From positions 1 to 60,565 of IMG/VR virus record IMGVR_UViG_3300003690_000008: DNA of 60,565 bases; one strand, written 5' to 3'. The translations under genes and the position numbers were made by a program. Positions within the stretch are counted from its first letter, which is position 1; every line of letters starts with the position of its first letter. Of the stretch, positions 5,547 through 54,996 are shown one piece after another. The notes under the pieces were generated by a model. The model searched no databases and was not told the DNA's origin. It worked only from the letters and a program-made list of their open reading frames with translations. The stretch is from a virus. Taxonomy: Duplodnaviria > Caudoviricetes.

Positions 5547-6221
5547 ATGAGCCTGGCAGTAATGGACAACCAACAAAATACCGATGGAATCGGCATTACG
5601 GCTGTCACGAAGCTCAAACATGCCGACCTCTGGCGAGCCGCTAAGAAACTCGGCAGCCAGTCAGCGCTAGGGAGGCACCTTGGGTTGCATCCCAGTGAAA
5701 TTGGCCTATGGATAAACTTAAGGGGGGTGCCACCATCCGAAGCAGTTGAGGGAAGTGCAAGGTGGACCGAAGATTACATAATGCAACTGGAAGGCAAGCT
5801 GCTGGCGCTGACTGGAAAATCCTGGGAAGAGTTGTTTCCGCCTGAACTCAGAAATAACACTGAATTTCTATGCTCCCAAAAAACAATCGAGAAAACGGCC
5901 TACCTCCGCGCTTCAGCGCTAGAGCATTATGCCAGAGCGACCACAGAGCGACTGTCATCTCCAGGCAATCACGATGGCGGGGATAAACTGCGAAGTGACT
6001 TGAATAGTGCCATCAAGACGCTCAGCTATCGCGAGCGCGAGATCATCAAGCTCCGTTACGGGCTGGGCGACGGTTACAGCTATACCCTGGAAGAGGTGGG
6101 GCACATTTTCAAAGTAAGTAAAGATCGTATCAGGCAAATCGAAGACAAGGCAATACGAAAGCTCCAGCAACCAAATAGAGCGGGGCTACTGGCAGACCAC
6201 TTACCGGAGTTGGATAAATAA
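5547..6221 (+). CDS. N-terminal HTH plus sigma-70 region 4 protein (no region 2)
   Basis: LSYREREIIKLRYGLGDGYSYTLEEVGHIFKVSKDRIRQIEDKAIRKLQQP is RpoD region 4. Confidence 0.9.
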   Translation: MSLAVMDNQQNTDGIGITAVTKLKHADLWRAAKKLGSQSALGRHLGLHPSEIGLWINLRGVPPSEAVEGSARWTEDYIMQLEGKLLALTGKSWEELFPPELRNNTEFLCSQKTIEKTAYLRASALEHYARATTERLSSPGNHDGGDKLRSDLNSAIKTLSYREREIIKLRYGLGDGYSYTLEEVGHIFKVSKDRIRQIEDKAIRKLQQPNRAGLLADHLPELDK

Positions 6222-10098: not shown

Positions 10099-10770
10099 AT
10101 GTACGAAAAACTCACCGATCTCGCTCGCAAGGTCTTTCAGCACGCCAACAACGATGCCAAAGACCGCAACCACGAATACATCGGCACGGAGCATATTCTG
10201 ATGGGTTTGGTTAAAGAACCCAATGGGGCCTGTGTGATCCTGAAGAAAATAAAGATCGATATCAATGAAATCAGGAGCAAAGTAAACGAGTTGGTTGAGA
10301 ATGGAATCGAGATGGTAACCATCGGCAAGGTTCCACATACGCCACGCGCGAAAAAGGTTATCGAGTACTCCATGAAGGAGGCGAGCGACTTAAACCACAA
10401 CTTCCTTGGAACTGAGCACATCTTACTGGGGTTGCTGCGGGAAACAGAAGGCATCGCTGCCCACGTCCTAAAATCTGTCGGGGTGTTTGCGTCAGCAGTA
10501 AGGAGCTACATGGATACCAATCCAGAGCTTAATCCAGAACCAATACCATCCAACGAAGACAAGCCCATTAGAGTCGAGATACTATGGAATGATTCCGGAA
10601 CAAAAAGAATAGCCGAGGAGATAAAAGCAAGCCACGATTTCGACATGGTGAAAAACCTAAAGAACGCCTACCTGAATGGAGTGCGAGATACGCTCGTCGA
10701 CCTGTCATCCAAAATCAACAGTCTTACTTCAGAAATAGACGACATGTACAAAGCCCCAACCGTAACGTAA
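10099..10770 (+). CDS. stand-alone Clp N-terminal (double Clp-N) domain protein
   Basis: Two HEYIGTEHIL / HNFLGTEHILLGLL repeats and TPRAKKVIE; no AAA domain. Confidence 0.9.
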   Translation: MYEKLTDLARKVFQHANNDAKDRNHEYIGTEHILMGLVKEPNGACVILKKIKIDINEIRSKVNELVENGIEMVTIGKVPHTPRAKKVIEYSMKEASDLNHNFLGTEHILLGLLRETEGIAAHVLKSVGVFASAVRSYMDTNPELNPEPIPSNEDKPIRVEILWNDSGTKRIAEEIKASHDFDMVKNLKNAYLNGVRDTLVDLSSKINSLTSEIDDMYKAPTVT

Positions 10771-28795: not shown

Positions 28796-29206
28796 ATGGA
28801 AAAAATAAGCAATGAGATCGAATCACTTGGCCGGCGAGCCGAAGTCCACATGTCTCACCAGGAGTGGTCGGCCGCGCATCACTGTATCGAGTTAGCCAGA
28901 AAGAGCTATGACGCAAGATGCACCAACGGATCACACAAAAAAGTCAGCCAAAAAAACCTGCTGAAAATGAGTACAATCGAGGCAGGTGTCAGCATTAGAA
29001 CAGCAAACCAACTGGAGAGGCACGGAGTCACGACGATGGGTGATGTAATGAAGACTAGGATGTCTGAAATGAAATCGTGGAATAATGTCGGCCCAAGGAC
29101 GATAAATGAAATCTTGCGAGTCGCGGAAAAGGTTGGGCTAATCGATAAGTGCCGGGGCTGCGGAAAACACTATCCAGCAGGAGGGGATTGCGGTTGTGGA
29201 TATTAA
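28796..29206 (+). CDS. RNA polymerase alpha-CTD-like domain protein
   Basis: VSIRTANQLERHGVTTMGDV...NVGPRTINEI. Confidence 0.75.
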   Translation: MEKISNEIESLGRRAEVHMSHQEWSAAHHCIELARKSYDARCTNGSHKKVSQKNLLKMSTIEAGVSIRTANQLERHGVTTMGDVMKTRMSEMKSWNNVGPRTINEILRVAEKVGLIDKCRGCGKHYPAGGDCGCGY

Positions 29207-40600: not shown

Positions 40601-43600
40601 ATGCCGCAAATTGTAGACAACTTCGGTAACCCGATAGCAAGCGAACGTCCCGTTACGCTTGACTACAAGCCAGGCATACGCCACATCTGGGGACGCAATC
40701 CCCGAGACTTGCCGCTGTTTAGTTTTCAAACTATTCAGTACATGATGATCGACCAGACTATCCGCCTTGGCCTTGCCATGCGAATGGCCCCGATATGTTC
40801 GGCAGAATTTGCCTATCGAGAGCAAGGGGAGTGGAAGTCCGGTGTCAAAGCAGACAACCCGGAAGTTGCTGATTTCGTCGAGCGTCAGCTAGAGCGGATA
40901 TGGCGTCACGACGTAGCAAAGATACTGGCAGCGCAAGTCTGGGGGTGGTCCGCTGGCGAGGTGATGTATAAGGTCGTCGGCAACCGCATTGAGTTCGACA
41001 CGATCCTAGAACGACACTCACGAGATGTTAGGACAGTGAGATGGAAGGGCCGTGTTGTCGGCGTTGAAGTACTCCGCCTGCAAGAAGGAAAAGATAAAGT
41101 CCGCCTCGGCCTGCCAGGGAAAGCGTTCTGGCATAGCTTTGATACGGAGGCCGGAAAGGATTACGGACGGAGTGTACTTATAGGCCCGTATTCAGCATGG
41201 GCCGACAAATGGCTGGAAGGTGGTGCCCTTGACGTTAGGCGTCTCTACATGCACGCCGATGCCTACGCTGGCCGGAGGATCGGATATCCGCCGGGAACCA
41301 CGGAGATACCAGGGGAAGGCGACGTTCCCAACCGCGACGTAGCCAGGGAAATGGCCGAGCAATACAAGTCCGGCGACGTGATGGTTTACCCGCAGGTGTG
41401 GGACGAGGACGGCAAGCCGCTGTGGGATATTCAAGACGCAAAGGTTCACAGCAACCCGTCGCATATTCTCCAATACCCAAAAGACCTGGACATTGAAATG
41501 CTTCGCGGGATGGAGATACCGGACGAAGTTGTCACGAGCATGGGTGGCGGCGGCGCTTGGCAGGGAAAGCAAGTTCCGATGCAAGCGTTTTACAACGGCC
41601 TAAACCTATGGGGCAATGCGGTCGTCAAGGTCGTGGTCACGCAAATCCTAGAGCCTCTTGTTAAATGGAACTTTGGCGAGGACGAGGCATTCGAGGCCAA
41701 CATGAAGCCTTTGGATATTCAGGCCATGGAATCGCAGGGGGCGAATCAGCAGCAGCAAGGTCCGATGGGGCCAGCCACCGGAGGATTCGGGCAAGAGCAG
41801 CCAGGAGGATTCGGGCAAGAGCAGCCAGGAGGATTCGGGCAAGAGGCCGGAGGGTTCGGCCAGGAAGCCATCGGCCAGGAGCAGAACGGAAATGGAGTTC
41901 CATTCCCCGGAGCAAGTCAGAGGTTCGCACTGAATCCAGTGAGGGCCGTTGGTGAGGGCGTTCTAAGCGCGGCTCAATTAGTTCAGGCTGCCAATGAAGT
42001 TATCGAAAGGAACACTAACGGCCATACCGAAGCACGATATGATCCCATCCCACAGCCGGCGATTCGGATAGAACACGTCGCCGTTGCCGTGGAGCAGAAT
42101 GACTCCACTAAGCCGGGCGGAGAAGTCCACGAGTACAGCAGCTTGATTTGTCCTCTGCCGCTAGAGTTGGCTATGTCGATCAGGGAGATGTCATCTCGAA
42201 TTGACGGAAGTGATTTTACCGACGAAGGCACTGAGGACGAGCCGCACATAACATTGAAGTATGGATTGCATTGTGAAACCGATGAAGCGGTGCGTCACGT
42301 ACTAAAGGACGTGGAGCCGATCTTAGTCATGTTTGGCAAGACATCTATATTCGAGTGCGACGAATGCGATGTAGTCAAGGTTGAAGTAGAGAGCCAGTCA
42401 TTAGATGACATCAACAAGCTGATCAGCGATGCCATCCCAAATACAGACACATATCCAGAGTATATACCTCACGCGACTGTAGCTCGTGTATTACGCGACA
42501 CCGGTTATAAGTACGAAGACATGGATGACCTGGAAGGAAAAACAGCAACCATAAGTCAAGTTACCTTCAGTGGAAAAACCGGAATCACCAGCGTGATTGA
42601 ATTGAGCGGCAGGACTCGTATGGCAGTTGAAGATTGGAACTTCAACAAGGGTCCACGCGGCGGTTCGGTTTGGACCAACGTCAAGACTGGAGAGATACGT
42701 CGTCAAAAAGAAAACCCAGGCGGAAAGCGAAGAAAAAAAAAACCAGAAAGCACATCCAATAGAAGACAGAAAAAGGAACCGACAGCCAATGCAACCACAA
42801 AACTAATGGATGAATTGGCATCGGGACTGGAAGAATCTCTGGGGTTTCCAAGAGACATGGCTATTCAGTACATCAAGCAAATGAGCGGAGCGGGCCGACA
42901 TGTGCTAAAGGGAACAAGTAAAGGAATGACCACCAAGCAAGCTCTATTTGGTTATGCAAATGCAATAGGAATGCCATCGCAGGATTTTGTGCGCGAGGGT
43001 GGTGTGTATGATTTCGAGGAAGGATATGCGGATAGCATTGTAGACGACGATATGCACAAAGAACTTTCTGAATGGACAGACGCTCTTAACGAGAAAGAAA
43101 GAGATGCGGTAATGGCTTACGCGACAGGGTCGCCGATAAATAAATCCTTACGCGAGTGCCCCGACGAAATGGACTGTCTTGATGAGGAAGAGAAGGATGT
43201 TCATAGCCATCTCGAAAAAATTATCGACAAAGCTAATGGGCTATCAGAACCAATGTTAGCATGGCGAGGCGTTGGCGGAAAACAAGCCGCTCTTGTGGTT
43301 GACCAGATGAAGAAGGCGATATCCGAAGGCAAGACAATGCACATGAACGGCATTCAGTCGTTTTCGGTTGATCCTACTGTAGCGGCGTTATATGTCGACG
43401 ATGCCCAAGAGGGGGTGGTGTTTGAGGTAATGTGCAAAAGCGGTGCTTACGTTGCGAGCATGAGTTTCGACCCTAATGAACGCGAGCTATTGCATGGTCA
43501 CGGCCAGCGTTATCGCCCGTTGAGAGTATTAAAGGATGTGGCATTTAGCAGTGGAAATCAGAAAAGTCTAGTTACAGTCATCCAAATGGAGCAGCTATGA
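40601..43600 (+). CDS. portal protein (DUF935/Mu gp29-like) fused to 2H phosphoesterase, GPRGG tag and ADP-ribosyltransferase
   Basis: WGWSAGEVMY, YGRSVL, ILEPLVKWNFG (portal); PHITL and PHATV (2H); WRG, QSFS and ERE (R-S-E ART). Confidence 0.85.
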   Translation: MPQIVDNFGNPIASERPVTLDYKPGIRHIWGRNPRDLPLFSFQTIQYMMIDQTIRLGLAMRMAPICSAEFAYREQGEWKSGVKADNPEVADFVERQLERIWRHDVAKILAAQVWGWSAGEVMYKVVGNRIEFDTILERHSRDVRTVRWKGRVVGVEVLRLQEGKDKVRLGLPGKAFWHSFDTEAGKDYGRSVLIGPYSAWADKWLEGGALDVRRLYMHADAYAGRRIGYPPGTTEIPGEGDVPNRDVAREMAEQYKSGDVMVYPQVWDEDGKPLWDIQDAKVHSNPSHILQYPKDLDIEMLRGMEIPDEVVTSMGGGGAWQGKQVPMQAFYNGLNLWGNAVVKVVVTQILEPLVKWNFGEDEAFEANMKPLDIQAMESQGANQQQQGPMGPATGGFGQEQPGGFGQEQPGGFGQEAGGFGQEAIGQEQNGNGVPFPGASQRFALNPVRAVGEGVLSAAQLVQAANEVIERNTNGHTEARYDPIPQPAIRIEHVAVAVEQNDSTKPGGEVHEYSSLICPLPLELAMSIREMSSRIDGSDFTDEGTEDEPHITLKYGLHCETDEAVRHVLKDVEPILVMFGKTSIFECDECDVVKVEVESQSLDDINKLISDAIPNTDTYPEYIPHATVARVLRDTGYKYEDMDDLEGKTATISQVTFSGKTGITSVIELSGRTRMAVEDWNFNKGPRGGSVWTNVKTGEIRRQKENPGGKRRKKKPESTSNRRQKKEPTANATTKLMDELASGLEESLGFPRDMAIQYIKQMSGAGRHVLKGTSKGMTTKQALFGYANAIGMPSQDFVREGGVYDFEEGYADSIVDDDMHKELSEWTDALNEKERDAVMAYATGSPINKSLRECPDEMDCLDEEEKDVHSHLEKIIDKANGLSEPMLAWRGVGGKQAALVVDQMKKAISEGKTMHMNGIQSFSVDPTVAALYVDDAQEGVVFEVMCKSGAYVASMSFDPNERELLHGHGQRYRPLRVLKDVAFSSGNQKSLVTVIQMEQL
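41780..41884 (+). repeat. coding tandem repeat GGFGQEQP (24-bp unit, 2 perfect + 3 degenerate)
   Basis: ggaggattcgggcaagagcagcca repeated in the portal linker. Confidence 0.9.
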
Positions 43601-44835
43601 GGGGTGACAGATTTAATGCCGAAGGCGACTCGATTTCCATCGAGGACAATCCGCCCGCAGTCGCTGCGGTCCAAGGCCGCATGGCAGCCAGGAAAGGAGA
43701 GCCGTCGTCCGCTAATCCTTACAAAGATAAACTAGATGATAGAACTATTATGTGGCACGCTGGGTGGAAGTCGGGGCAAATTAAAACAATGGCAGTCGAA
43801 GACTGGAACTTCACTCGCGGTCCTCGCGGCGGCTCAGTCTGGAGCAACGTAAGAACCGGAGAGGTCAGACATCAGAAAGAAAACCCAGGCGGCAACGGGT
43901 CCATTAAGAGTGCCGATGACCCCGAGGAGCCAAAGCGACCGCCAGTAAAAGACAAGCCTCGATCAACTAAACGTCGGGCTGTACGAGGCGAGTTATTTGA
44001 TGCAACGGTCCAAGGAAAAGGAAAGACCAAGAAGATATTTCTCGCAAACGGAGAGCCAGCACCCAGCCACATCCAAGAGGTTGCCGCTGCCATTCAACCG
44101 GGCTGGACCAACATAAAGATTACAGTGGACCCAGAGTCGGATTTAGTTGCCACTGGGGTTGATAGCAAGGGCCGCACGGTTCCGGTTTACACCACCAAGT
44201 TCAAAGCACGCAATGCGGAAAGCAAACGATCTCGCGTATCAGAGTTGATGCAAAAGAAGTCAGCGATCTTAGAGCAGATCGACAAGGCAACACAAAACAG
44301 TAATCCCGCCATCAAGACATCAGCCGACATTCTTTCGTTGATTGCATCCACTGGATTGAGGACCGGAAGCACTCGGGATACAAAGGCCGATAAACAGGCG
44401 TATGGAGCGACCACTCTCTTGGGCCGTCATGTATTCAGCACCCCACGCGGCGTGAGGCTGAAGTTCACAGGCAAGAAGGGCGTTCCACGTAGCGTGCTTG
44501 TAAAAGACGAAAAACTTGCTAACATGTTGTTAAAGAGAAAGCGAGCCGCCGGAAAGAAGGGAAGATTATTTTCGGTCAGCGCCGGCACGGTACAGAAGTA
44601 TGCCAGGAGCCTTGATGGTGGGAAGTTTATGCCGAAGGACTTCCGCACGATGCTAGGTACGGAATCAGCGGTCAATCTTTTGTCGTCCGCAAGGCCGGCT
44701 AGGGACGAACAGGACTACAGAAAGAAAGTAAATGCCATCGGAGATAAGGTTGCGAAGATACTCGGCAACACCAGAAAAGTTGCACTGCAAAGTTACATCG
44801 ACCCTACGGTATTCGGAAAACTGATGCCAACATGA
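43597..44835 (+). CDS. RMF-like leader + GPRGG tag + DNA topoisomerase IB
   Basis: ATGVDSKGR, GLRTG, YGATTL..RH, FTGKKG, KDFRT, LGNT, SYIDP catalytic set. Confidence 0.9.
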   Translation: MRGDRFNAEGDSISIEDNPPAVAAVQGRMAARKGEPSSANPYKDKLDDRTIMWHAGWKSGQIKTMAVEDWNFTRGPRGGSVWSNVRTGEVRHQKENPGGNGSIKSADDPEEPKRPPVKDKPRSTKRRAVRGELFDATVQGKGKTKKIFLANGEPAPSHIQEVAAAIQPGWTNIKITVDPESDLVATGVDSKGRTVPVYTTKFKARNAESKRSRVSELMQKKSAILEQIDKATQNSNPAIKTSADILSLIASTGLRTGSTRDTKADKQAYGATTLLGRHVFSTPRGVRLKFTGKKGVPRSVLVKDEKLANMLLKRKRAAGKKGRLFSVSAGTVQKYARSLDGGKFMPKDFRTMLGTESAVNLLSSARPARDEQDYRKKVNAIGDKVAKILGNTRKVALQSYIDPTVFGKLMPT

Positions 44836-45044
44836 CTCACGACAAAAACGACCCGTTCGGCACTGGCTCCCCCGTTGTCTTTGTCGGTCCCAAGAAGGAC
44901 TGGCGAGACAATCCCGATGTAGCCAACGAGACCGACCCAGACGATGAACTGTTAAGTAAAACTCCCGAGGACGTAGTTGCCATCCTTGGATTCGACCCCC
45001 TGGATGCCGACACAGGGGACGAAGATGATGGTAGCAACATCTAA
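44832..45044 (+). CDS. 70-aa acidic protein (possible Topo IB partner)
   Basis: ATGA-coupled to the topo gene; DDELLSKTPEDVVAILGFDP. Confidence 0.6.
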   Translation: MTHDKNDPFGTGSPVVFVGPKKDWRDNPDVANETDPDDELLSKTPEDVVAILGFDPLDADTGDEDDGSNI

Positions 45045-48000
45045 TATCGCCGACTCAATGTGTGCCGAAATAGATTCGGGAGACTGGCACCCATTTCTCG
45101 ATCAGCATTCCCATACCCGCTGGAAGAACGTCCGCACCGGTGAGATACAGCGTCTCGCCGCCGAGGATTGGTCATCATTCCGAGGTCCTCGCGGCGGCAC
45201 CGGCTGGAAGAATGTTCGCACGGGTAAGGTAAAATACCAGAGAGATCGTCCTGGTGGAAATCGCCCAAAAAGTAAATCTCAACCAGAAAAACGAACACCG
45301 GCAAAATTCACAGGCATAGTCGATGAGTTGAATATACGCGGAAAGGAGAATATTCGATTCAGGAAGGGATTCACAACAAAAGACTATATCGGCGGAATGA
45401 AAGCCGCTGAACGAAGAGGCATTCTCGGCGAGCTACGCAAGCGAGACCTATGGCTAGTCAGTCACCTACTCGTCGACAGTGAAGGAGGGTATCACGGAAC
45501 CAGCGCTGACATACCCACAAGCGACATATCGCACTTCAAGCATCCAGACGAGGTAATTGATAGGGTTGATGAATTCCAGAACGATAACTTATCGGCCATT
45601 GCCGGAAAAATTGGCATGTCGGCTCACGTCCTGAGGGACCAAGTAAACGAAAGTGTGAAAGAGGCCCTCAAGGACGCCTTGCCGTTCATTAGGGTTGAGC
45701 TTCCTGTTGTCAGTAAGATTTTACAATCAGGGAGATTCTTGAGTCAGCACGAAATGGATTTAGCGGCTGGAGAGGACTTCATGGCAGAGGTCAGGAGCGA
45801 TGTGGAGTTGGAAGTAATGGGTGTACCGAGGGGCACCCTGGCTTCATATAGGCCGATATACGGCTACCTATCAAGCCTTCGTCCCGGCGACCCCGGCCCC
45901 AGCGGTCACGCCGACACGACAAGCTATGGTGATGTCGTGGTTGAACTCAAAGAGAATCTTAAAGACCGGTCCACGGTTACATTTCAAGATTCCATGGGTG
46001 CCATGGATACGGGAAACTTCATGGCTACACCAGTAAGCAAGCCCAACATTAGGAGCGTAGATTTAGGTGGAGACGAACTGCCGTACAAAGTTAGAAACAA
46101 AACCGTTGACGGCGACGGATACACCGAGGCGCAAATCCACAACGGTATCTCACTCAAAGACATAGAGAAGGTGTGGTTCGAGTCGTCACCTGATGCCGGC
46201 CTTGCGAAAGAAATGAAAAAGGCCGGGGTGTCGTGGGGCGTTGTCGGAAAGCCTGTCAGTATGGCAGCGGAGGACTGGTCATCCTTCCGTGGCCCTCGCG
46301 GCGGCACCGGCTGGAAGAACGTGCGAACAGGTAAAGTGAAATACCAGAAGGATCGACCTGGAGGCCGAAACGGAAGCGTCGAGAAAACCGGCATTGCCAC
46401 GCAGAGAAAAGAGAGAGTGATCCCAGACATAACCAAGTCCACCAAAAAGGAATACGCCGGGGACATTGATGACTACCTAGGTGGAGAGACGGGACCACTT
46501 GGGTACAAGGAAATGGTGGAGAAATTTGGAGATGAAGCAGTCACGAAGGCATACGCGGACGTGAGAGACAGAGACAAAGAATGGGACAGATACATACGCA
46601 GGGAACTATCGCTAGGGAGGACAACAGAAGACGATGCACGTAAGATCGGGTACTTCAACGCAAGCGGCAGAGCAGTAGAGCCCTTGCCGAAGTACCTGTA
46701 TCACGTCACGACAGCATCAGACTCAATCCTTCGAGATGGACTCAAAACTAGAGACGAGCTAGGACAGAGATCGGGCAAAGGACTCGGGGCCGGGCCAGAC
46801 GATACCATCAGCTTTACAGATAGCCCGAAGATAGCGTCGGGTATTCACCGCGCGATGATTGAAGCCAGGAGCGTTGCTCGTGGAGAGATCAGCGTTCAGG
46901 ATATGCTTGACTACGCCAAACGAGGAGATGGAGTCGGCAAGCCGTGGTTACGTAGACTCGTTCAGAGGTGGGACCCTGAATGGAATGACGGTGACAAGCT
47001 CCCGTTCGGGTTGCAGTTAATAGTAGACGGTCGAGAGCGTGGCACTGGAATGGGGCATCCTCCCCGAGACGGAACCGGATGGGAGCCAGTGGGCGATGGC
47101 ATGTGGGACTGGACACGCAAGCTAGACCCAGATGAAGACAGGGATGAAAGATTTGATTTCTACAAAAGGTTCGCATTTATCCGCGAGGATGCTGGCGGGC
47201 CGCTCGATCCGCTGTTCATGTCCACTGACGTAGGCGCACTGGCCGAGAGTGAACCAGATCAAATACACATCATGCAGTTCAAGCCCAAGCCAAACGCGCA
47301 GGGGTACAAGGTTAGTGCGTTAGGCGAATGGCGGACATGGACCGGTGATGCAGTGGATGTCGTTAGAGGGGACATTGAGAAAACCGGGATCGCCAAAGTC
47401 ATGTCATTCAGGTGGCCTGACGATTGCTACCTCGACTCACCTGTCCGCATGGCAGCCGAGGACTGGCAAGCATTCCGTGGACCACGCGGCGGCACCGGTT
47501 GGAAGAATGTTCGCACAGGTGAGGTTAAATACCAAAAGGATAGGCCAGGTGGTAAAGAGAAACAAGAAGAAGCCAGCGACGAAACGCAATCCAGAAAAAG
47601 GACATCGCGGACCCCCGATGAAGTTCACAAAGAACTACAGTGGGCCATGCATGAGCAACTGAATGCCATCACGGAGTACGGTGCATCTAAAGAGAGAATC
47701 GCTGAGCTATCAAAAATAATAAATAGCATACCACTGCTAGAGATCGAGCTAGAGGAGTCACGCGCGATCAACACTAAATATGGCAATACGATAGTCAATG
47801 GTAACGACAAACTGGAAGCCAGCGACATAAAGCAACTCCAGGAGATCGGAATCAAGTTGTTCGCAAGTAGGGACGAGCAAGACGAATACACAAAGACAGC
47901 CACCCCCAAAGAGTTAATTGGCGCTCCCTTAATGTCTATATCGCCAACCGGAGAAAGAAGCGCAAACCACGAGGCCAGGGTAGAGGTAAAGAAGAAGGTC

Positions 48001-49848
48001 GGCGAAAACATCAGCAATCACTTACTCAAGGAGCTTAGTAGGGACGATATACTTTGGGGTGCTGCCGCAGTATTCACGGCTGTTAGATTTGAGGGGGATA
48101 CGTCTATTGATACTGGTGACCTGGAAACAGAAATGGGCAGTAAAGCATCGCACTTAATGTCATCTGAAACCGAAGAGATAGCATCTATCGCAACCAGGGC
48201 AATAATAAAGACCTGGGCACAGAGTAGCTCTGACAACAACGTGTTGAGTGTGGCGGTTCAATTGGCGGTACAGGAGAAATTTGCCGAGCTATTTGAATCC
48301 GATGTCCAATCTCTTGATTATGTCAACGAAGACGTAAGGCGTGCATCGAAGCATATATACAACAGCAGGAAGCCGTTCTTCGACGCCGTTGTTGGCAAGA
48401 TGTACAGCGACACCCAAGTAGCACTAAAGAACAGCGGCGTCGAAGAGTTGCTGCTATATCGTGGCATGAGCTTTATGACCGAAAAAGACACGCCGGCTGA
48501 AATTAAATCAGCCATGAATAAATCACCAAACTGGAATGATGCGGCGAGTGGTGGACGCATGGGATGGCACACCAAAAGCGGCATCCGGCAGAATCCAATA
48601 TCTTCATGGTCAACCGATTACAAAACTGCCATATCCTTTGCGGGGCAGGGAATTACAGACGCAGAGGCAAGTGTAATGTCAACAGCAACGGTTCCGAGGG
48701 AGAGGATATTCTGCACTTCCTTAACTGGATTTGGTTGCTTGACTGAATCTGAGCTATTGGTTGTTGGCGGCGATCCACTAAACGGAGACGTGACCATCAG
48801 TGATAGCGGCGTGCCGTGGGCCGGACGAGGTACACGAGGTGAGTTCCTTCAGGCAAGTGATCGAGCCAGGCCACTAAGTGAAGGCGAGAAATTATCTCTT
48901 GTTCGCCTTGCTGCCGAGGATTGGAACTACACACGCGGCCCCCGTGGCGGATCGGTTTGGACAAACGTCCGAACAGGAGAGGTGCGACACCAAAAAGAAA
49001 ACCCTGGAGGCAAGGCATCCGCTTCCAAAGAGGAAACCGGAACAAACATCGCTCCCGACAGTCTCCTTTCTCAATTAAAAGATGAGCTTGCGGATACCGG
49101 GATGAGTTCCGCCGACATCGACGTGGCTTTTGGTGGAATGCCGAAGACCGAGCGACAACTGACTCTGGACGTATCGGTAGGGCTGAGCGTCAAGCAATCT
49201 CTAGCAAGACACGCCGCCGCGCTCGGCATGGACAACGAAGATGTTCCTCGCGTATGGAGCGGAGGGCCAGGGGAGAAACTTCATGTCCAAATGTCTAACT
49301 GGATTGATAAAGTTGAGGAGGAAGACGAAGACATGGTAACTAAATACACGGCAGATGGATCACGCGATCTCAATGAAGCGATGAGAGAGTGCCCGGAAGA
49401 ATTGGACTGCCTTGGAGACGAAGATGGTAATATTCTCGAAGGCGTATCGAGGGCTATCAGTGCGGCTGGACTTTTGCCACACACCATGACGGCATGGAGG
49501 GGAGTTCCTGGTGGTGGAGAAAGCGGTAAGGTAATACAGAAAGTCAAAGACGCAATAGAAAACGGACAGACGATAGGGATGAATGGAATTCAGTCATTGT
49601 CCTTTGATCCCGGCACTGCAACTCGGTTTTCTGGATCAAAGGATAGTGCGGTGGTGTTTGAAGTTCGATGCAAGAGCGGGGCTTACGTCGAGGAAGTCGC
49701 GGAGTTACACAATGAGTTTGAATTGCTACATGACCACGGACAGAGATACCGGCCATTGAGGATACTCAACGACGTGCCGTTTGTGCCGAACGAGGCGTTG
49801 CCAGATATGGTCATAAGAAGAACTGTCATTCAAATGGAACAGCTATGA
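45025..49848 (+). CDS. ~1600-aa polyvalent protein: 4 tags, each followed by a cargo (DUF3626-like, H-type ART-like, R-S-E ART, R-S-E ART)
   Basis: RPIYGYL..YGDVVVEL..YTEAQIH; LYHVT...ISFT...GEWR; LYRG...SSWST...ESELLV; WRG...QSLS...EFELL; start uncertain. Confidence 0.85.
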   Translation: MMVATSNIADSMCAEIDSGDWHPFLDQHSHTRWKNVRTGEIQRLAAEDWSSFRGPRGGTGWKNVRTGKVKYQRDRPGGNRPKSKSQPEKRTPAKFTGIVDELNIRGKENIRFRKGFTTKDYIGGMKAAERRGILGELRKRDLWLVSHLLVDSEGGYHGTSADIPTSDISHFKHPDEVIDRVDEFQNDNLSAIAGKIGMSAHVLRDQVNESVKEALKDALPFIRVELPVVSKILQSGRFLSQHEMDLAAGEDFMAEVRSDVELEVMGVPRGTLASYRPIYGYLSSLRPGDPGPSGHADTTSYGDVVVELKENLKDRSTVTFQDSMGAMDTGNFMATPVSKPNIRSVDLGGDELPYKVRNKTVDGDGYTEAQIHNGISLKDIEKVWFESSPDAGLAKEMKKAGVSWGVVGKPVSMAAEDWSSFRGPRGGTGWKNVRTGKVKYQKDRPGGRNGSVEKTGIATQRKERVIPDITKSTKKEYAGDIDDYLGGETGPLGYKEMVEKFGDEAVTKAYADVRDRDKEWDRYIRRELSLGRTTEDDARKIGYFNASGRAVEPLPKYLYHVTTASDSILRDGLKTRDELGQRSGKGLGAGPDDTISFTDSPKIASGIHRAMIEARSVARGEISVQDMLDYAKRGDGVGKPWLRRLVQRWDPEWNDGDKLPFGLQLIVDGRERGTGMGHPPRDGTGWEPVGDGMWDWTRKLDPDEDRDERFDFYKRFAFIREDAGGPLDPLFMSTDVGALAESEPDQIHIMQFKPKPNAQGYKVSALGEWRTWTGDAVDVVRGDIEKTGIAKVMSFRWPDDCYLDSPVRMAAEDWQAFRGPRGGTGWKNVRTGEVKYQKDRPGGKEKQEEASDETQSRKRTSRTPDEVHKELQWAMHEQLNAITEYGASKERIAELSKIINSIPLLEIELEESRAINTKYGNTIVNGNDKLEASDIKQLQEIGIKLFASRDEQDEYTKTATPKELIGAPLMSISPTGERSANHEARVEVKKKVGENISNHLLKELSRDDILWGAAAVFTAVRFEGDTSIDTGDLETEMGSKASHLMSSETEEIASIATRAIIKTWAQSSSDNNVLSVAVQLAVQEKFAELFESDVQSLDYVNEDVRRASKHIYNSRKPFFDAVVGKMYSDTQVALKNSGVEELLLYRGMSFMTEKDTPAEIKSAMNKSPNWNDAASGGRMGWHTKSGIRQNPISSWSTDYKTAISFAGQGITDAEASVMSTATVPRERIFCTSLTGFGCLTESELLVVGGDPLNGDVTISDSGVPWAGRGTRGEFLQASDRARPLSEGEKLSLVRLAAEDWNYTRGPRGGSVWTNVRTGEVRHQKENPGGKASASKEETGTNIAPDSLLSQLKDELADTGMSSADIDVAFGGMPKTERQLTLDVSVGLSVKQSLARHAAALGMDNEDVPRVWSGGPGEKLHVQMSNWIDKVEEEDEDMVTKYTADGSRDLNEAMRECPEELDCLGDEDGNILEGVSRAISAAGLLPHTMTAWRGVPGGGESGKVIQKVKDAIENGQTIGMNGIQSLSFDPGTATRFSGSKDSAVVFEVRCKSGAYVEEVAELHNEFELLHDHGQRYRPLRILNDVPFVPNEALPDMVIRRTVIQMEQL

Positions 49849-50912
49849 ATTCCGAAAAGTTTTTAGCCACCAGTGATTCGATTGTCGTCAAGGACAATCC
49901 ACACATGGCAGCCATGAAGCAAGGCCAGCAATCTGCCCAGCAGGGTGAGCCTTTGGAAATGAATCCATATAAAGAACACAAGGACGCCAGGGCCGTAATG
50001 TGGCTCGTTGGGTGGAAACGCGGTTCCATGCAAACAATGTCTGTCGAGGATTGGAATTTCACCCGAGGCCCTCGCGGAGGAAACATCTGGAGTAATGTTC
50101 GTACTGGTGAAGTGCGTCGTCAAAAAGAGAACCCCGGAGGAAAAAGACGGAACAGTAAACAGAAAGAACGCGACAAGCGACGAAAAAAGAAGCAGAAAAT
50201 GCCAGCGCCTAGCAAGCTATATAAAGTGAAAACATTTGGAGACGTTGATTCTGATGTGCTTCAGACTTATCTAGATGGACTAGACGCCATACCGCCAGAG
50301 ATACGCCATCGAATCGAAGGGAAATTCAAGACAAAGGTTTGGGTTGGCTCTGGTGGCGTTCTCAACATGAAACCACAATGGAGGGGTGAGGTTCCGCGAG
50401 GGCAAAAGGGGAGACGGTCATACGATGCGGTAAGCGCTATCTACGACCCAAATCTAGGTGCAAATGAGATTGTACTATCGTCCAAGATTTTTTATGGTGG
50501 CCAGTGGCGTCCTCAGTCCACTAAGCAGATGCTACATGGTGTTCATCACGAATACGGCCACGCGATAGATTACAGTCGTGGTCGTCTGACGGAACTGTGG
50601 AGCGAAACAGAGGAATTTAGAGACGCCTGGGAAAAAGATGTGGCTGATCTTTTAGAGGATACCGGGAGTGTCGTTGGTAGCGGCGGCACTGGCGAGGAGC
50701 ATAGCCTAACGGGCGATGCGGCTGATCTATCGTATTACATTCAGATACAGCACGGCCAACCGTCAGCAGCGATAGGCGCGAGTGAGGCGTTTGCTGAATC
50801 TGTGGCATTTATACTAGGAGAGCCAAGCAATAGGGAGTTTCCTGGTAGATTCAAGAGGTCGGTTGGTTTTGCCGTGGAAGTCCTGGATAAAATAATGAAA
50901 GGCGAGGCATGA
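49845..50912 (+). CDS. RMF-like leader + tag + zincin metallopeptidase
   Basis: HHEYGHAID and SEAFAE. Confidence 0.85.
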   Translation: MNSEKFLATSDSIVVKDNPHMAAMKQGQQSAQQGEPLEMNPYKEHKDARAVMWLVGWKRGSMQTMSVEDWNFTRGPRGGNIWSNVRTGEVRRQKENPGGKRRNSKQKERDKRRKKKQKMPAPSKLYKVKTFGDVDSDVLQTYLDGLDAIPPEIRHRIEGKFKTKVWVGSGGVLNMKPQWRGEVPRGQKGRRSYDAVSAIYDPNLGANEIVLSSKIFYGGQWRPQSTKQMLHGVHHEYGHAIDYSRGRLTELWSETEEFRDAWEKDVADLLEDTGSVVGSGGTGEEHSLTGDAADLSYYIQIQHGQPSAAIGASEAFAESVAFILGEPSNREFPGRFKRSVGFAVEVLDKIMKGEA

Positions 50913-51115
50913 TACACATTACGCTACAAGACGACAGCATGCTTGTTTCTTCCCGCCACGATTTACCAGGCGGCGCGATAGGAGATTCGTTTTTGACCGT
51001 CACTCCCGGACAGCACATTGGCGATTTGTCCTACGAACAATTGAGAGAACTTGGTAGCGGGCAGCATGACATAGACTTTATAGGGAGCGACTCTAAAGAA
51101 AAGCCGGGAGAATAA
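50909..51115 (+). CDS. 68-aa hypothetical protein (possible peptidase partner)
   Basis: ATGA-coupled ORF. Confidence 0.55.
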   Translation: MIHITLQDDSMLVSSRHDLPGGAIGDSFLTVTPGQHIGDLSYEQLRELGSGQHDIDFIGSDSKEKPGE

Positions 51116-51116
51116 A

Positions 51117-52043
51117 ATGCCTGACACAATTGAAATCAACATAGACCACGACCTAGCACACGCCGACTGGCCAAAGCGCACGCCAGATACCATGGAGGAC
51201 CTTGAAAGAGGTATCGAGGAGGAGAAGGAGGAAGCCAGAAAAAAGAAAACAGAAAAACCAACCAACGGTTCTACGACAACAATGTCCGTCGAGGATTGGA
51301 GTTTCACCATAGGCCCGCGAGGCGGGAGCATTTGGACTAATGTTCGCACTGGAGAAGTTCGCCGCCAAAAAGAAAACCCAGGAGGAAAAAGAAGGAAGAA
51401 AAAAGATGATAAGGAAGGCACGAAGGTTGCCTCAAACAAGAAGTTTATATCAGCGAGACTTGTCAATTTATTTGCAAGCACCCAGAGCAACAAAAACGCG
51501 AAACGCGCATCCGATGATACTATTAACAAAATGTCACCACGGATGATTAAGGGAGTAGCCGAGAACATCGGAGGTGTTTTTGTGTTCGATACGATGAATG
51601 AAGTGCATAAACAGTGGAAAATCCTGTCCGGCAAAACCACCTTGCCGGACGGTGGAATAGCCGCGTTTGTGTCGTCTAGCGAAGGCGAGAGGATGAGCAT
51701 GTATGTAAACGGTGGAGATGATGGGATATGGGCGCACGAATACACACACATGATAGATTACGGAAGCTCGTTTAGTGGAACCGAAGAGTGGAAAAAGATA
51801 TGGCAGGAATGGAGGCGAAACACGAAGTTAGCTGATGAGTATGACGATAGACTAGAGGATGATCCAGATGCAGACTTTGATTTCGATCCGTTTTCTGACT
51901 TAGGTCCATCGAGGTACGCAACAACAAATCCTGCCGAAGCATTCGCAGAATTCGGCAGGATTGTGATTGCGAGCCCAGAGACAGCCAAGGCTCAGCACCC
52001 AACTGCCTGGAAATTCTGGAAACAAGCCGGGTTGATACAATGA
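51117..52043 (+). CDS. leader + tag + zincin metallopeptidase
   Basis: AHEYTHMID; SRYATTNPAEAFAE. Confidence 0.85.
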   Translation: MPDTIEINIDHDLAHADWPKRTPDTMEDLERGIEEEKEEARKKKTEKPTNGSTTTMSVEDWSFTIGPRGGSIWTNVRTGEVRRQKENPGGKRRKKKDDKEGTKVASNKKFISARLVNLFASTQSNKNAKRASDDTINKMSPRMIKGVAENIGGVFVFDTMNEVHKQWKILSGKTTLPDGGIAAFVSSSEGERMSMYVNGGDDGIWAHEYTHMIDYGSSFSGTEEWKKIWQEWRRNTKLADEYDDRLEDDPDADFDFDPFSDLGPSRYATTNPAEAFAEFGRIVIASPETAKAQHPTAWKFWKQAGLIQ

Positions 52044-52777
52044 TCGCACAAACACTATCAGCCGAAGACTGGAATTACACGCGAGGTCCGCGCGGTGGCA
52101 ACATCTGGACGAATGTGAAAACTGGAGAGATACGGAGGCAAAAGGAAAACCCAGGCGGGAAAGAGAAGGGAAGAGTAAAAGAAGATAGCAGCGGCCAAGC
52201 CAAAGCGAGAGCGTTTAAGAAATACGACGATCCCAGATACGTGGCGGCCAGAGAAGAGTGGTTCGGCAGTCTAAGCGACGATGAAATGAATGCTTTTCGT
52301 GCATGGAGCGGGAGCGTGGACATGGCTACTGAGATCAGGAATTATCAAGCCGGTCTACCTGGCAGACATTCGCAGCATGTTAAAAGCGTCACCGAGACCA
52401 TAGCCAAAGCCCTCGATAGGGCACCTAAGTTAGCCACGCCCGTTTACAGGGGACTCAACTTCCGCAGCAGCGAAGATCGCAAGGAATTCATAGCCTTGAT
52501 GTTAAAGAACAAGGGAATGGCTACACGTGGATTTACGTCGACTTCCAGGTCACGGGAGATTGCTAGTAAATTCTCGGATGACTATTACGGTGTTGTGTTA
52601 ATAATCCGCTCCAAGTCTGGCGTAAGCATATCTTTTGAAGACATCGCAATCCTAAATGAAGATGAAGTTCTACTGAGAGAGAAAACGAAATTGAGGTATG
52701 ATTTCAAAACGAAAATCATGGGAGAGCCGAAGTTCGGAAAAAGCGGAACGATATACATCGGGATGACCGAAGTCTAG
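52040..52777 (+). CDS. tag + R-S-E ADP-ribosyltransferase
   Basis: VYRGL, GFTSTS, NEDEVLL. Confidence 0.9.
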   Translation: MIAQTLSAEDWNYTRGPRGGNIWTNVKTGEIRRQKENPGGKEKGRVKEDSSGQAKARAFKKYDDPRYVAAREEWFGSLSDDEMNAFRAWSGSVDMATEIRNYQAGLPGRHSQHVKSVTETIAKALDRAPKLATPVYRGLNFRSSEDRKEFIALMLKNKGMATRGFTSTSRSREIASKFSDDYYGVVLIIRSKSGVSISFEDIAILNEDEVLLREKTKLRYDFKTKIMGEPKFGKSGTIYIGMTEV

Positions 52778-52809
52778 GCCGCGAAACAACAAACCAAGCG
52801 AGATGCAAG

Positions 52810-53208
52810 ATGACAAGCCAACCAAACAGAATGATTGACACAGGCATCGACGAGGCCATGGTAACCTTTGACATGAGTAAAGAAGTAAGCGACTCACGGC
52901 ACTCGCTGCCAGAGATATTCGACCATCCAATCAATGTTGAGTTGGAAGATGGAACGGTGATCCATGCCGATGGACGCAAGAGCCATGATCAAGTCGACGA
53001 AGAAAGCCTGACAGACGACGACCGTAAACTAGGAAAGGAAGCTAGGCAGCAGGCTCTCGACGGCCACAACCCAGCGTCATGGGTAGCCGACGAGGACAAA
53101 TGGGAGAAGGCAAAAGACATTGTGAAAAGCGGCAAAAAAAAGTACAATGAGCCTTATGCCGTGATTACTCACATTTACCTGGAAAAACTTGGAGGCAAGA
53201 TCAAATGA
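52810..53208 (+). CDS. hypothetical protein
   Basis: Acidic N-half; C-terminal NPASWVADEDKWEKAK...YAVITHIY...GG. Confidence 0.6.
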   Translation: MTSQPNRMIDTGIDEAMVTFDMSKEVSDSRHSLPEIFDHPINVELEDGTVIHADGRKSHDQVDEESLTDDDRKLGKEARQQALDGHNPASWVADEDKWEKAKDIVKSGKKKYNEPYAVITHIYLEKLGGKIK

Positions 53209-53963
53209 CCGTCCAAACACTCGCCGCCACAAGAATCGAAGCGTGCCCGACTGTTTTTGCCAGGGCCGGAGGAATGCGGCTATCGACCGACTACGGTGAA
53301 GTCACTTACCCGGAAGCAAGGTCGCTTATCGAAAACGGGTGCGAGATGCTTTCCGTGGAAAACGAAGATGGCATCACGGTTGGTGCCATGATTCTGGATG
53401 ACAAGTGTTCTGGCGATTGGTCGTTCGTGAGGATGGACGCTTCCAGTTGGACGCAATCGAAAGGCCCCCGTGGAGGGTCCATCTGGACGAATAGCAAAAC
53501 CGGGGCCACCAGGCACTCGAAAGAGAATCCGGGCGGGAAAGGCAAAACGCCAAAGGCGGAAAAAGGCAGTTCTGCTGACAAAAAAGGCAGCGGCGTGAAT
53601 CACGCGATCTCCAAGATCGCAAAAGACATCCTTCTGATCCCGACCCTCAAAGAGAGAAAGAGCGATAGCCTGGATTTCCATGAGGTCGCGGTTTGGACAG
53701 TCAGGGATGCGATGCAGAAGGCATTCAATGCTGGCCAAGGGAAGAATTCCAAACCGACGAAGAACACTGTTTCTATGTTCGAGAATATGGTTAAGAAGTA
53801 CATGGACATCGATACACTGAAAACACAAAAAGCTGGCCATCTCGATTTCCATGAGGTTGGCGTGGAGTCTGTTAGGATTGCGCTAGAAAAGGCATACAAT
53901 GCTGGCAAAGCGCGCCGGGAGCACCCAGAGCTACACCGGCGGAGTAAAACGAGACCCCAATAG
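53205..53963 (+). CDS. divergent tag + two DUF6900-like domains
   Basis: IPTLKERKSDSLDFHEVAVW...AFNAG and IDTLKTQKAGHLDFHEVGVE...AYNAG. Confidence 0.7.
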   Translation: MTVQTLAATRIEACPTVFARAGGMRLSTDYGEVTYPEARSLIENGCEMLSVENEDGITVGAMILDDKCSGDWSFVRMDASSWTQSKGPRGGSIWTNSKTGATRHSKENPGGKGKTPKAEKGSSADKKGSGVNHAISKIAKDILLIPTLKERKSDSLDFHEVAVWTVRDAMQKAFNAGQGKNSKPTKNTVSMFENMVKKYMDIDTLKTQKAGHLDFHEVGVESVRIALEKAYNAGKARREHPELHRRSKTRPQ

Positions 53964-53979
53964 CGTATTCGGTTAAGAA

Positions 53980-54996
53980 ATGCCAGACGCGGCCAAACGA
54001 TCCACCGACCTGATTATTGGTCGCGGCCTGATAACGGCTGAAGCGATCGCGCAAAAGCTACGCATCAGACTGGCCCACCGGCTGGCCCGAAATTTCAGCC
54101 GGATGTCGTTCCACCAGTTACTCGGTATGGCCCGGCAGGTTCTAGGCGAGTTCGAGCCACTTCTGGCTACCGCAATGGCCGATACGGAAATCGCGGCCTG
54201 GGTTCGCGGCCTAGGGGTCATCACCAACCGCACCCCCCAGCGGATTCTGGCCCTATTCACTTCCGGGTTTCCCCCCCTAGTCCCTCCAGGGCTCGTTCTG
54301 CCGCCTGACCTCACGATAGGGGACGCAGGGCCTATTGTGGTGTTTCCACGCCTCCAGGAGGCCACACAGGCCCTCGTGGACCGGAATATCGTCACTAGGC
54401 CCCAGTTCGACTCAATGACCCGAGAAGCTCAGGGCCGGGCCTTCACTGTGGCTGGCCAAACCAACGCCGAGGTGATCGGCAGAATCCGAGATGTGCTGGC
54501 CGAGGAAATCACCGAGGGGACCAGTTTCGGTAAGTTCAAAAAACGAATGCGAGAGGAGCTAGATGTAAGCTGGGTAGGACCCGGCCATTTGTCGAATGTT
54601 TACCGCACCAACACACAAGCGGCGTTTGCCGATGGCCAAGAGGTTCTTTTCAACAATCCAATAATCCGAGAGGCATTTCCATACGCTAGATATACTGCGA
54701 TTGACGACGGCAGGGTAAGAGATAATCATTTAGCGCTCGAAACACTTGGGCTGTCTGGCACAAATATATACAGGATGGATGATCCTGTGTGGGATATTTT
54801 CACGCCGCCGTGGGACTACATGTGCAGGTGCTCCAAGACAGCCATGACGATATTACAGGCTGCCAAAGCTGGCGTCCGAGAAGCCAAGCGATGGAACCGA
54901 ACAGGCCAACCACCAGACGATCCAGAGTTCAGAATTGACGACATCCCATTCAGACCGACAAACAACTTTGTTGGTCCACGTCGACGAGTTGCGTAG
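53980..54996 (+). CDS. MuF (Mu gpF/SPP1 gp7-like) minor head protein
   Basis: RAFTVAG, VYRTNTQAA, YTAIDDGRVR..H, PPWDYMCRC. Confidence 0.9.
   Translation: MPDAAKRSTDLIIGRGLITAEAIAQKLRIRLAHRLARNFSRMSFHQLLGMARQVLGEFEPLLATAMADTEIAAWVRGLGVITNRTPQRILALFTSGFPPLVPPGLVLPPDLTIGDAGPIVVFPRLQEATQALVDRNIVTRPQFDSMTREAQGRAFTVAGQTNAEVIGRIRDVLAEEITEGTSFGKFKKRMREELDVSWVGPGHLSNVYRTNTQAAFADGQEVLFNNPIIREAFPYARYTAIDDGRVRDNHLALETLGLSGTNIYRMDDPVWDIFTPPWDYMCRCSKTAMTILQAAKAGVREAKRWNRTGQPPDDPEFRIDDIPFRPTNNFVGPRRRVA

Follow-up and report, generated by a model that had tools for sequence, protein, structure and literature searches.

A duplicated phage cassette pairs an ADP-ribosyltransferase with an Rmf/CrpP-fold leader domain predicted to sit in its active site

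We analysed the whole of the IMG/VR virus record IMGVR_UViG_3300003690_000008 (60,565 bases, linear, CheckV completeness 66%; here called the window), a contig of an uncultured phage in which a gene ending in an ADP-ribosyltransferase (ART) is twice followed directly by a gene opening with a short leader domain that resembles ribosome modulation factor (RMF). Both pairs lie in an array (40601-54996) of Portal_Mu, 2H, ART, type IB topoisomerase (TopoIB), zincin, third ART, two DUF6900 and Phage_Mu_F domains. Between the Mu-like portal and the MuF gene the array consists of effector modules of the 'polyvalent' kind, which would be packaged and delivered with the virion, each marked by a short recurrent domain that we call the tag. 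Four open reading frames (ORFs), all on the + strand, hold the two pairs. The portal fusion (999 aa, 40601-43600) comprises Portal_Mu at aa 46-201, 2_5_RNA_ligase2 (a 2H phosphoesterase) at aa 526-636 and ADPrib_exo_Tox at aa 820-992; the 412-aa P0002, starting at 43597, has RMF and then Topoisom_I; the 1623-aa polyprotein P0003 (44977-49848) ends in a C-terminal ADPrib_exo_Tox domain; and the 355-aa P0004, starting at 49845, has RMF followed by a peptidase-like region with the motif HEYGH.

Two paralogous blocks can be delimited, each reading tag, linker, R-S-ExE ART, ATGA overlap, 62-aa leader and tag: copy A at 42614-43899 and copy B at 48901-50147. Copy A opens within the portal fusion at tag T1 (42614-42730; 82.3 bits with the tag hidden Markov model, HMM) and continues with ART module A, the linker and ART that form the portal C-terminus (42731-43600; AWRGV, QSFS and ERE, ending in TVIQMEQL and TGA). 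Leader A follows (43597-43782, P0002 aa 1-62), composed of an acidic N-terminal extension of ~20 aa and a core of Rmf/CrpP fold at 43663-43779, and tag T2, also found with the tag HMM, closes the copy at 43783-43899. Behind it comes cargo A, a TopoIB domain (43900-44835; Pfam Topoisom_I, E 3e-18, aa 200-396). Copy B is bounded 5' by T6, the fourth tag of the polyprotein (48901-49017, 85.6 bits), followed by ART module B at the polyprotein C-terminus (49018-49848; R1508, S1540/S1542 and E1580/E1582, again ending in TVIQMEQL and TGA), by leader B (49845-50030, P0004 aa 1-62; N-terminal extension and core of the same fold at 49908-50027) and by T7 (50031-50147, tag HMM). Its cargo is a putative zincin peptidase (50148-50912) that matches phrog_4415 'peptidase' at E 2.1e-5 and has an HEYGH motif; it matched no Pfam peptidase family and no solved structure at E<=1.

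The ART modules, taken with the linker after the upstream tag, are identical at 121 of 306 positions (40%; BLASTP E 6e-62), the leaders at 28 of 62 (45% over aa 1-62, E 2e-21), and leader plus tag at 59%. When the 22 inter-tag segments of the array were compared all against all by BLASTP, the two ART modules (4e-56) and the two leaders (1.7e-19) were the only pairs at E<=0.01; the cassette is the sole duplicated one of the array and is bounded by tags on both sides. A first-pass annotation of this DNA had described paralogous ARTs sharing the TVIQMEQL terminus, homologous leaders behind them and cargos that differ, and its coordinates and motifs agree with ours, as does the contrast of TopoIB in P0002 with a zincin-like HEYGH protein in P0004. 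The duplication that it proposed also holds, but its starts, 43060 and 49290, lie too far 3': similarity between the ART modules sets in right after the upstream tag, 5' of the Pfam ART boundary, and the block begins at the preceding tag (42614 and 48901). The alignment that it had called for, 43060-43893 against 49290-50141, gives 475 identities in 831 aligned columns (57.2%) at the DNA level. Because blastn between the copies detects only the tags and two ART stretches of ~39 nt, the paralogy is apparent at the protein level. Nei-Gojobori proportions of synonymous (pS) and nonsynonymous (pN) differences between the copies were 0.74 and 0.43 for the ART, 0.70 and 0.37 for the leader and 0.95 and 0.11 for the tag. 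Since synonymous sites are saturated, the duplication is old; since pN is below pS in the leader, this domain is under protein-level constraint; and of the three parts it is the tag that is most strongly constrained.

Stop and start overlap as ATGA in both copies, at 43597-43600 (...caaatggagcagctATGA) and 49845-49848 (...caaatggaacagctATGA), and the coupling of ORFs reported in the first-pass annotation is therefore preserved, with GGAG and GGAA, respectively, 5 nt upstream. These stretches fall within the codons for Met and Glu of ...MEQL; some of the conserved ART C-terminus may therefore be constrained as a ribosome-binding site. A programmed frameshift at the ATGA was considered and rejected, as the overlap sequence appears to contain no slippery heptamer.

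Both ARTs pass Pfam ADPrib_exo_Tox (PF03496; cut-off 23.4), module A with 38.2 bits (E 1.3e-9) and module B with 34.2 bits (E 2.1e-8), and in a profile search of the PDB their closest solved relatives are ExoT (E 2.2e-5) and ExoS (E 3e-4). Each retains an Arg (in AWRGV), a Ser-x-Ser (QSFS in A, QSLS in B) and a Glu-x-Glu (ERE and EFE, respectively), which from their alignment positions and the features known for the family we take to be the catalytic residues. An inhibitor would thus have a target, as the ARTs keep these motifs, pass the family profile and resemble ExoT and ExoS.

A third R-S-ExE ART (52040-52777; YRGL, STS, EDE) lies directly 3' of an N-terminal tag and is distantly related to the other two (26% over 149 aa, E 3e-6, in a single comparison). 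Matches to phrog_595 'head maturation protease' fall on ART regions (portal ORF aa 715-976, and aa 47-218 of 52040-52777) and on no protease-like part; this label looks misleading for these ART proteins, and the contig has no recognisable prohead protease domain.

The leader had been likened to Rmf in the first-pass annotation, and the likeness is borne out independently in both copies: leader A scores 31.5 bits (E 1.9e-7) and leader B 31.6 bits (E 1.7e-7) against Pfam RMF (PF04957), above the gathering score of 27.9, and a second scan gave 35.0 and 34.8 bits. Among the NCBIfam models, leaders A and B reach 18.1 and 17.9 bits with the Rmf equivalog NF011162 (PRK14563), which has a cut-off of 40, and fail it. 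The top match is Rmf_like_phage (NF041887; B 30.7 and A 20.7 bits, below the cut-off of 40); NF041886 Rmf_CrpP_fam (B 27.6 and A 20.7 bits, cut-off 28) is also missed, yet is among the top matches; and NF033696 CrpP_fam gives 28.2 bits for B, below its cut-off of 55, and no hit for A. In PHROGs the leader matches phrog_1757, small phage proteins of unknown function. By structure, the nearest ESM Atlas neighbours of a model of P0004 1-66 are PF04957 clusters (TM score by query 0.77), a CrpP family cluster (0.65) and a 195-aa viral 'ribosome modulation factor' cluster (0.64; 54% viruses). An AlphaFold2 model of leader plus tag from two sequences showed helices at 19-32 and 48-58 followed by three strands, at a predicted local distance difference test (pLDDT) of 45, too poor for structure search. 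Searching the leaders against the PDB with phmmer returned matches at E 0.6-1 only; the leader core has the motif G..G....PY.....R..W..GW in common with one solved Rmf, 2jrm (E 0.69).

The leader differs from Rmf at its N-terminus. The Pfam alignment starts only at profile position 11-12, leader residues 1-22 are net acidic, and the isoelectric points are 6.5 (A) and 8.1 (B). In E. coli RMF, R3, K5, R8, R11 and R15 are described as conserved basic residues that hydrogen-bond 16S rRNA (10.1101/382572); the leaders have no counterpart to any of them, and an Ala of leader B is aligned with R11 of the Vibrio Rmf 2jrm. The leaders are moreover N-terminal domains of 412-aa and 355-aa ORFs, as against ~55 aa for free Rmf. 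The leader is a domain of Rmf/CrpP fold, not Rmf itself.

To relate the leader to its neighbour we predicted a complex of ART-B (P0003 1347-1623) with leader B (P0004 1-66) in one job. The interface score ipSAE was 0.65, 0.70 and 0.68 (median 0.68), against 0.00 for the best of three controls; partner pLDDT was at least 76 and the runs shared at least 68% of contacts. In calibration the mark used here was reached by 51 of 78 solved complexes, by 2 of 108 mismatched pairs and by 7 of 44 pairs of neighbours taken blind. On the ART side the modelled interface takes in R1508-P1511 (AWRGV), N1529-S1542 (Ser-x-Ser), E1580, R1590 and the helices at 1367-1405; on the leader side it takes in residues 3-18 together with 24, 37 and 46-58. 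The contacts of lowest predicted error are those of leader F6-A8 with R1508-V1510 and S1540-L1541 and those of leader I13-K16 with 1519-1534. The model thus supports binding between ART-B and leader B and places the N-terminal extension of the leader in the catalytic cleft. This extension is outside the Pfam RMF match, yet F6, A8, D11, S12, I13, D17 and N18 are identical in the paralogues.

The first-pass annotation had left the leader two roles, inhibitor of the upstream ART or ribosome-acting effector. The complex model, with its score of 0.68 against 0.00 and its interface on R1508, S1540/S1542 and E1580, speaks for the inhibitor; failure of NF011162, a match beginning at position 11-12 and an acidic N-terminus lacking basic rRNA contacts speak against the ribosome. 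The model suggests a role for the leader in self-protection or docking rather than as a ribosome factor. Our favoured, and tentative, reading (probability roughly 0.45) is that the leader is a cognate ART-binding module that occludes the active site, is fused to a tagged cargo (TopoIB or zincin) and has been duplicated with its ART as a unit. An ExoS/T-like ART at the C-terminus of a carrier, portal or polyprotein, is followed by an ATGA-coupled gene that opens with the leader. In the model the extension of the leader covers the catalytic Arg, the Ser-x-Ser and the first of the two ExE glutamates, and the helical core of the leader packs against helices that precede the ART domain. As long as the two remain paired, within the producing cell and possibly also within the capsid, the ART would be inactive, and it would be freed once the proteins separate on ejection; translational coupling would ensure that the plug is made whenever the ART is made. 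We count in favour of this reading that ART and leader are adjacent in both copies and are the only paralogous pairs, that both copies retain the stop and the ATGA overlap, that the leader shows protein-level constraint and that Tri1 offers a precedent.

We looked for the leader, the tag and their linkage to ARTs elsewhere. An exhaustive HMMER search of 1.84 billion representative proteins with a leader-plus-tag profile returned 41 proteins at E<=0.001, of which 6 are the window's own and 33 match in the tag part only, their best stretch beginning at query position 55 or later; the remaining two, P0012 and P0043, proved on reading to be low-complexity repeats and were discarded as leader matches. 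The 33 foreign tag proteins are 63-4048 aa long and hold 1-6 tag copies each, and the tag is widespread in metagenomic polyvalent proteins. Pfam scanning covered 32 of them, all but the 63-aa fragment P0011: 14 of the 32 have a family at E<=1e-4, among them ART-PolyVal (5), Portal_Mu (3) and Phage_Mu_F (1) as well as LPD1, DRAT, 2H, Zeta_toxin, Sigma70, PolyA_pol and SNF2, and RMF was found in 0 of 32. Word-index protein searches with P0004 1-105, with the leader alone and with the portal ART region recovered the window's own proteins only. Megablast of 40601-50912 against phages and tblastn of leader plus tag against phages at E<=1 gave nothing. A search of plasmids and phages with only the leader, at E<=10, returned rows at E>=1 only, and a closer look at one of them, from a Vibrio plasmid, was uninformative. 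Scans of viral contigs with leader plus tag, with the tag alignment and with the ART alignment yielded no confirmed locus, and a metagenome scan with the portal yielded nothing.

Three viral contigs carry a relative of the portal, and one of them, L005, encodes a portal-polyvalent protein with three tags, followed by a tagged ORF. Contigs of prokaryote genomes contribute eight portal loci (L007-L014) at 39-49% identity, six of them from Planctomycetota (five Pirellula/Pirellulaceae) and one of them, L011, on a complete Pirellulaceae chromosome, which suggests a planctomycete host for this phage group. PF04957 was present in 0 of the 3 viral records and over cut-off in 0 of 5 genomes; two weak matches (E 0.018 and 0.05) in portal-relative genomes fall outside the portal loci. 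Across the eight loci, tags and ART homologues were each found at one and the leader HMM at none (two hits at independent E-values, i-E, of 0.3 and 1.3). At the locus with ART homologues, L008, the order is portal (with a kinase-like part), an 84-aa ORF, a first ART, an overlapping ORF of 56-61 aa, MuF and a 675-aa protein with a second ART, with no tags. The layout of portal fusion, ARTs and MuF therefore recurs, and behind one of the homologous ARTs there is again a small coupled ORF. The two ART proteins of L008 (13543-14547 and 15742-17769) have in common an N-terminal region of ~80 aa (MK.I.RLS...CFQRL...) in place of the tag, which may be an alternative handle. As far as we searched, the linkage of ART and leader that the first-pass annotation expected in other genomes was found in none, and the Rmf-like leader is so far known from this contig only.

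Several of these observations weigh against an occluding plug. The reading rests on one structure-prediction result and one genome, the prediction being a single job on pair B of two, run without alignments, and the leader occurs in no other protein among the 1.84 billion representatives. L008 is the only relative with homologous ARTs, and there the ORF behind the first ART is unrelated to the leader (BLASTP E 1.2) and the second has no overlapping ORF behind it; within the window, the third ART likewise has no Rmf-like leader behind it. A plug fused to a tag and a cargo also looks bound for the capsid, so that the inhibitor would travel with its target. Identity between the paralogues at the modelled interface is slightly higher than elsewhere in the ART (27/55 against 83/221) and lower in the leader (11/30 against 19/36), a pattern that fits diverging specificity and equally an absence of constraint and is not decisive.

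Three other explanations must be considered alongside the plug. The leader may have a neutral or assembly role that has nothing to do with the ART and may serve the downstream protein, as its pro-domain, its chaperone or a domain that binds nucleic acid; it would perhaps be cleaved off at TM[AS]VE-DW and would have been copied with the ART only as its neighbour. We think this rather unlikely. Its position at the N-terminus, directly before the conserved tag junction, is what such a domain would have, a simple segmental duplication explains the adjacency, and the Atlas holds Rmf-domain fusions in longer viral proteins (the 195-aa cluster, 54% viruses); that no linkage was found elsewhere, and that blind neighbour pairs passed the complex test in 7 of 44 cases, add to it. 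The predicted interface nevertheless falls on the active site, its score of 0.68 (controls 0.00) clearly exceeds the 0.34-0.59 of the four known false passes, and the contig shows no recognisable protease domain. The same complex model would also apply if contact between leader and ART served to tether the cargo to the ART-bearing carrier for co-packaging in fixed proportion, with occlusion of the active site incidental. The portal is a dodecamer, ART-A is part of the portal itself, and the leader is fused to a cargo rather than being a free small protein. Docking of this kind is quite unlikely in our estimate, however, given that the cargos already bear the tag common to all ten modules, that six other tagged modules have no leader, and that mere tethering would not need contact with catalytic residues.

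Finally, the leader could be an Rmf mimic that is ejected along with the DNA, attaches to the 30S subunit close to the anti-Shine-Dalgarno region and shuts down or redirects host translation. Both copies do exceed the Pfam RMF gathering score, the core motif is common with 2jrm (E 0.69), and Atlas neighbours include RMF clusters with TM scores by query of up to 0.77. Against this, NF011162 gives 18.1 and 17.9 bits against a cut-off of 40 and even the best model, Rmf_like_phage, is below cut-off, and a match from profile position 11-12, acidic residues 1-22, isoelectric points of 6.5 and 8.1 and the lack of basic rRNA-contact residues are all at odds with it. Moreover, RMF-dependent formation of 100S particles is described for gamma-proteobacteria (10.1101/382572), whereas the portal relatives are mostly from Planctomycetota (6 of 8 loci). 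A ribosome-acting role is disfavoured, and we hold it to be very improbable.

The tag that bounds the cassette is a domain of ~39 aa with the pattern (M/L)(A/S)xEDWxxxxGPRGGxxWxNVxTGExRxQKxxPGG. Ten copies, 117 nt each and always in the frame of the gene, lie between 42614 and 53543, with starts at 42614, 43783, 45148, 46255, 47443, 48901, 50031, 51276, 52049 and 53427. The tag delimits every effector module on its N-terminal side, often with a basic linker behind it. A fold model of the ten-tag alignment has three strands (pLDDT 85.8). Foldseek returned no match at E<=0.001; most listed rows, and 7 of the first 10, are WW domains (E 0.39-1.4, TM score by query 0.47-0.60). VIA, a search independent of Foldseek, placed FBP11 WW1 first (Z 3.7, root mean square deviation 1.5 A, 30 of 30 residues aligned), with further WW domains at Z 2.2-2.8 mixed with unrelated rows. 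None of the ten tags matched a Pfam family at E<=10, and none of the three scanned matched a PHROG at E<=0.01. By its modelled fold the tag is a WW-like mini-domain, which could act as a handle for packaging, processing or interaction.

The first-pass annotation had further proposed that cargos are shuffled by recombination at the tags. The limits of the duplicated blocks at tags are compatible with this, as is a degenerate half-tag at 45115-45153 (HTRWKNVRTGEIQ; polyprotein aa 47-59, HMM i-E 7e-4) that adjoins the first full tag of the polyprotein and may be a scar of unequal exchange between tags. The DNA itself leaves no trace of it: nucleotide identity among the ten tags is 49-83%, and the longest exact common run is 26 nt (T3-T4) and at most 17 nt in all other pairs. 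With these values and the saturated synonymous sites, recent gene conversion between tags is rejected. Recombination there is plausible.

Across the contig the + strand carries nearly all long ORFs. On the 5' side of the array are DNA methylases, a sigma-70-like protein, glycosyltransferases, a lambda-E-type major capsid protein, a head-tail adaptor and a neck protein. Behind P0004 come three further tagged ORFs, one of them the third ART and one with two DUF6900 domains, and a short Phage_Mu_F (MuF) gene (53980-54996) forms the 3' end of the array. Small, very acidic ORFs lie 3' of the TopoIB, zincin and third-ART genes, at 44832-45044 (70 aa), 50909-51115 (68 aa) and 52810-53208 (132 aa), the first two overlapping the preceding stop as ATGA. 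The second and third were scanned for families and had no match; these ORFs could be further partner or inhibitor genes. The phage also encodes an RNA polymerase alpha C-terminal domain (alpha-CTD)-like protein (28796-29206), a sigma-70 region-4 protein (5547-6221) and a Clp_N-domain protein (10099-10770). The alpha-CTD copy is notable next to three ARTs because T4 Alt is described as targeting Arg265 of RNA polymerase alpha (PMC8120803).

Parts of this arrangement have precedents. One for the predicted mechanism is Tre1-Tri1 of the Serratia proteamaculans type VI secretion system, in which Tri1, encoded next to the R-S-E ART Tre1, is described as neutralising it, with an N-terminal extension that occludes the active site (PMC8120803). 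Our model likewise puts the N-terminal extension of a partner from the adjacent gene, leader residues 3-18, on the catalytic Arg, Ser-x-Ser and Glu of an ART. The body of Tri1, however, is a DraG-like ADP-ribosylhydrolase, whereas the leader has an Rmf/CrpP fold and is joined to a tag and a second enzyme; the ART is carried by a phage portal or polyprotein rather than a type VI effector, and inhibition is a prediction. MuF polymorphic toxins of temperate phages are described as bearing a C-terminal toxin (an ART in 14%) on a head-module carrier beside the portal, with a short coding region directly downstream for which protection of the producer is proposed (Jamet et al. 2017, PMC5576092). The likeness lies in a C-terminal toxin domain on a head-module carrier with its partner encoded directly downstream. 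In our phage, by contrast, the carriers are the portal and a tagged polyprotein and the MuF gene (53980-54996) is short, the partner is the N-terminal domain of a 355-412-aa protein rather than a free ORF of <150 aa, and the cassette is duplicated in the genome.

The array as a whole resembles the phage polyvalent proteins, for which portal/MuF fusions to 2H phosphoesterase are described together with ARTs and zincin metallopeptidases (Iyer et al. 2017, PMC5512222): multi-domain effectors stand next to portal and MuF, and the foreign tag proteins combine the tag with ART-PolyVal, Portal_Mu, Phage_Mu_F and LPD1. The ARTs here, in contrast, are of ADPrib_exo_Tox and not of ART-PolyVal type, and RMF and WW domain each have 0 occurrences in the main text of PMC5512222. 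The leader has in common with the small Rmf/CrpP proteins a two-helix core, the motif, a passing Pfam score and RMF and CrpP structure neighbours; unlike them it is not a free basic protein of ~55 aa, lacks the basic rRNA-contact N-terminus and stays below every NCBIfam cut-off. T4 Alt is likewise an R-S-E ART, described as being carried in the phage head and active at once upon infection (PMC8120803). We know of no adjacent inhibitor of Alt.

The cassette belongs to known kinds, phage polyvalent effectors and toxin-immunity cassettes; what is unexpected is the fold of the partner. If the leader does plug the ART, this would give a testable function to the Rmf/CrpP fold, whose members on mobile elements lack an explanation, and would show how a phage can carry a number of virion enzymes that may be toxic: translational coupling would supply each with a silencer of its own, and the pair would be copied as a unit. 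The reading may extend to the phage 'Rmf-like' family and to CrpP, whose role as a fluoroquinolone-modifying enzyme is treated as disputed in the wording of one paper. That Rmf/CrpP-fold proteins of phages and integrative elements are in general plugs for ARTs or other NAD-using toxins, immunity or anti-toxin modules rather than ribosome factors or antibiotic kinases is a long shot; were it true, this phage would be the first case with a visible partner, by virtue of the coupled and duplicated cassette. Should the plug reading be wrong, the finding is an old segmental duplication in an orphan phage. The cassette offers a worked example of how polyvalent arrays are assembled from tag-delimited modules.

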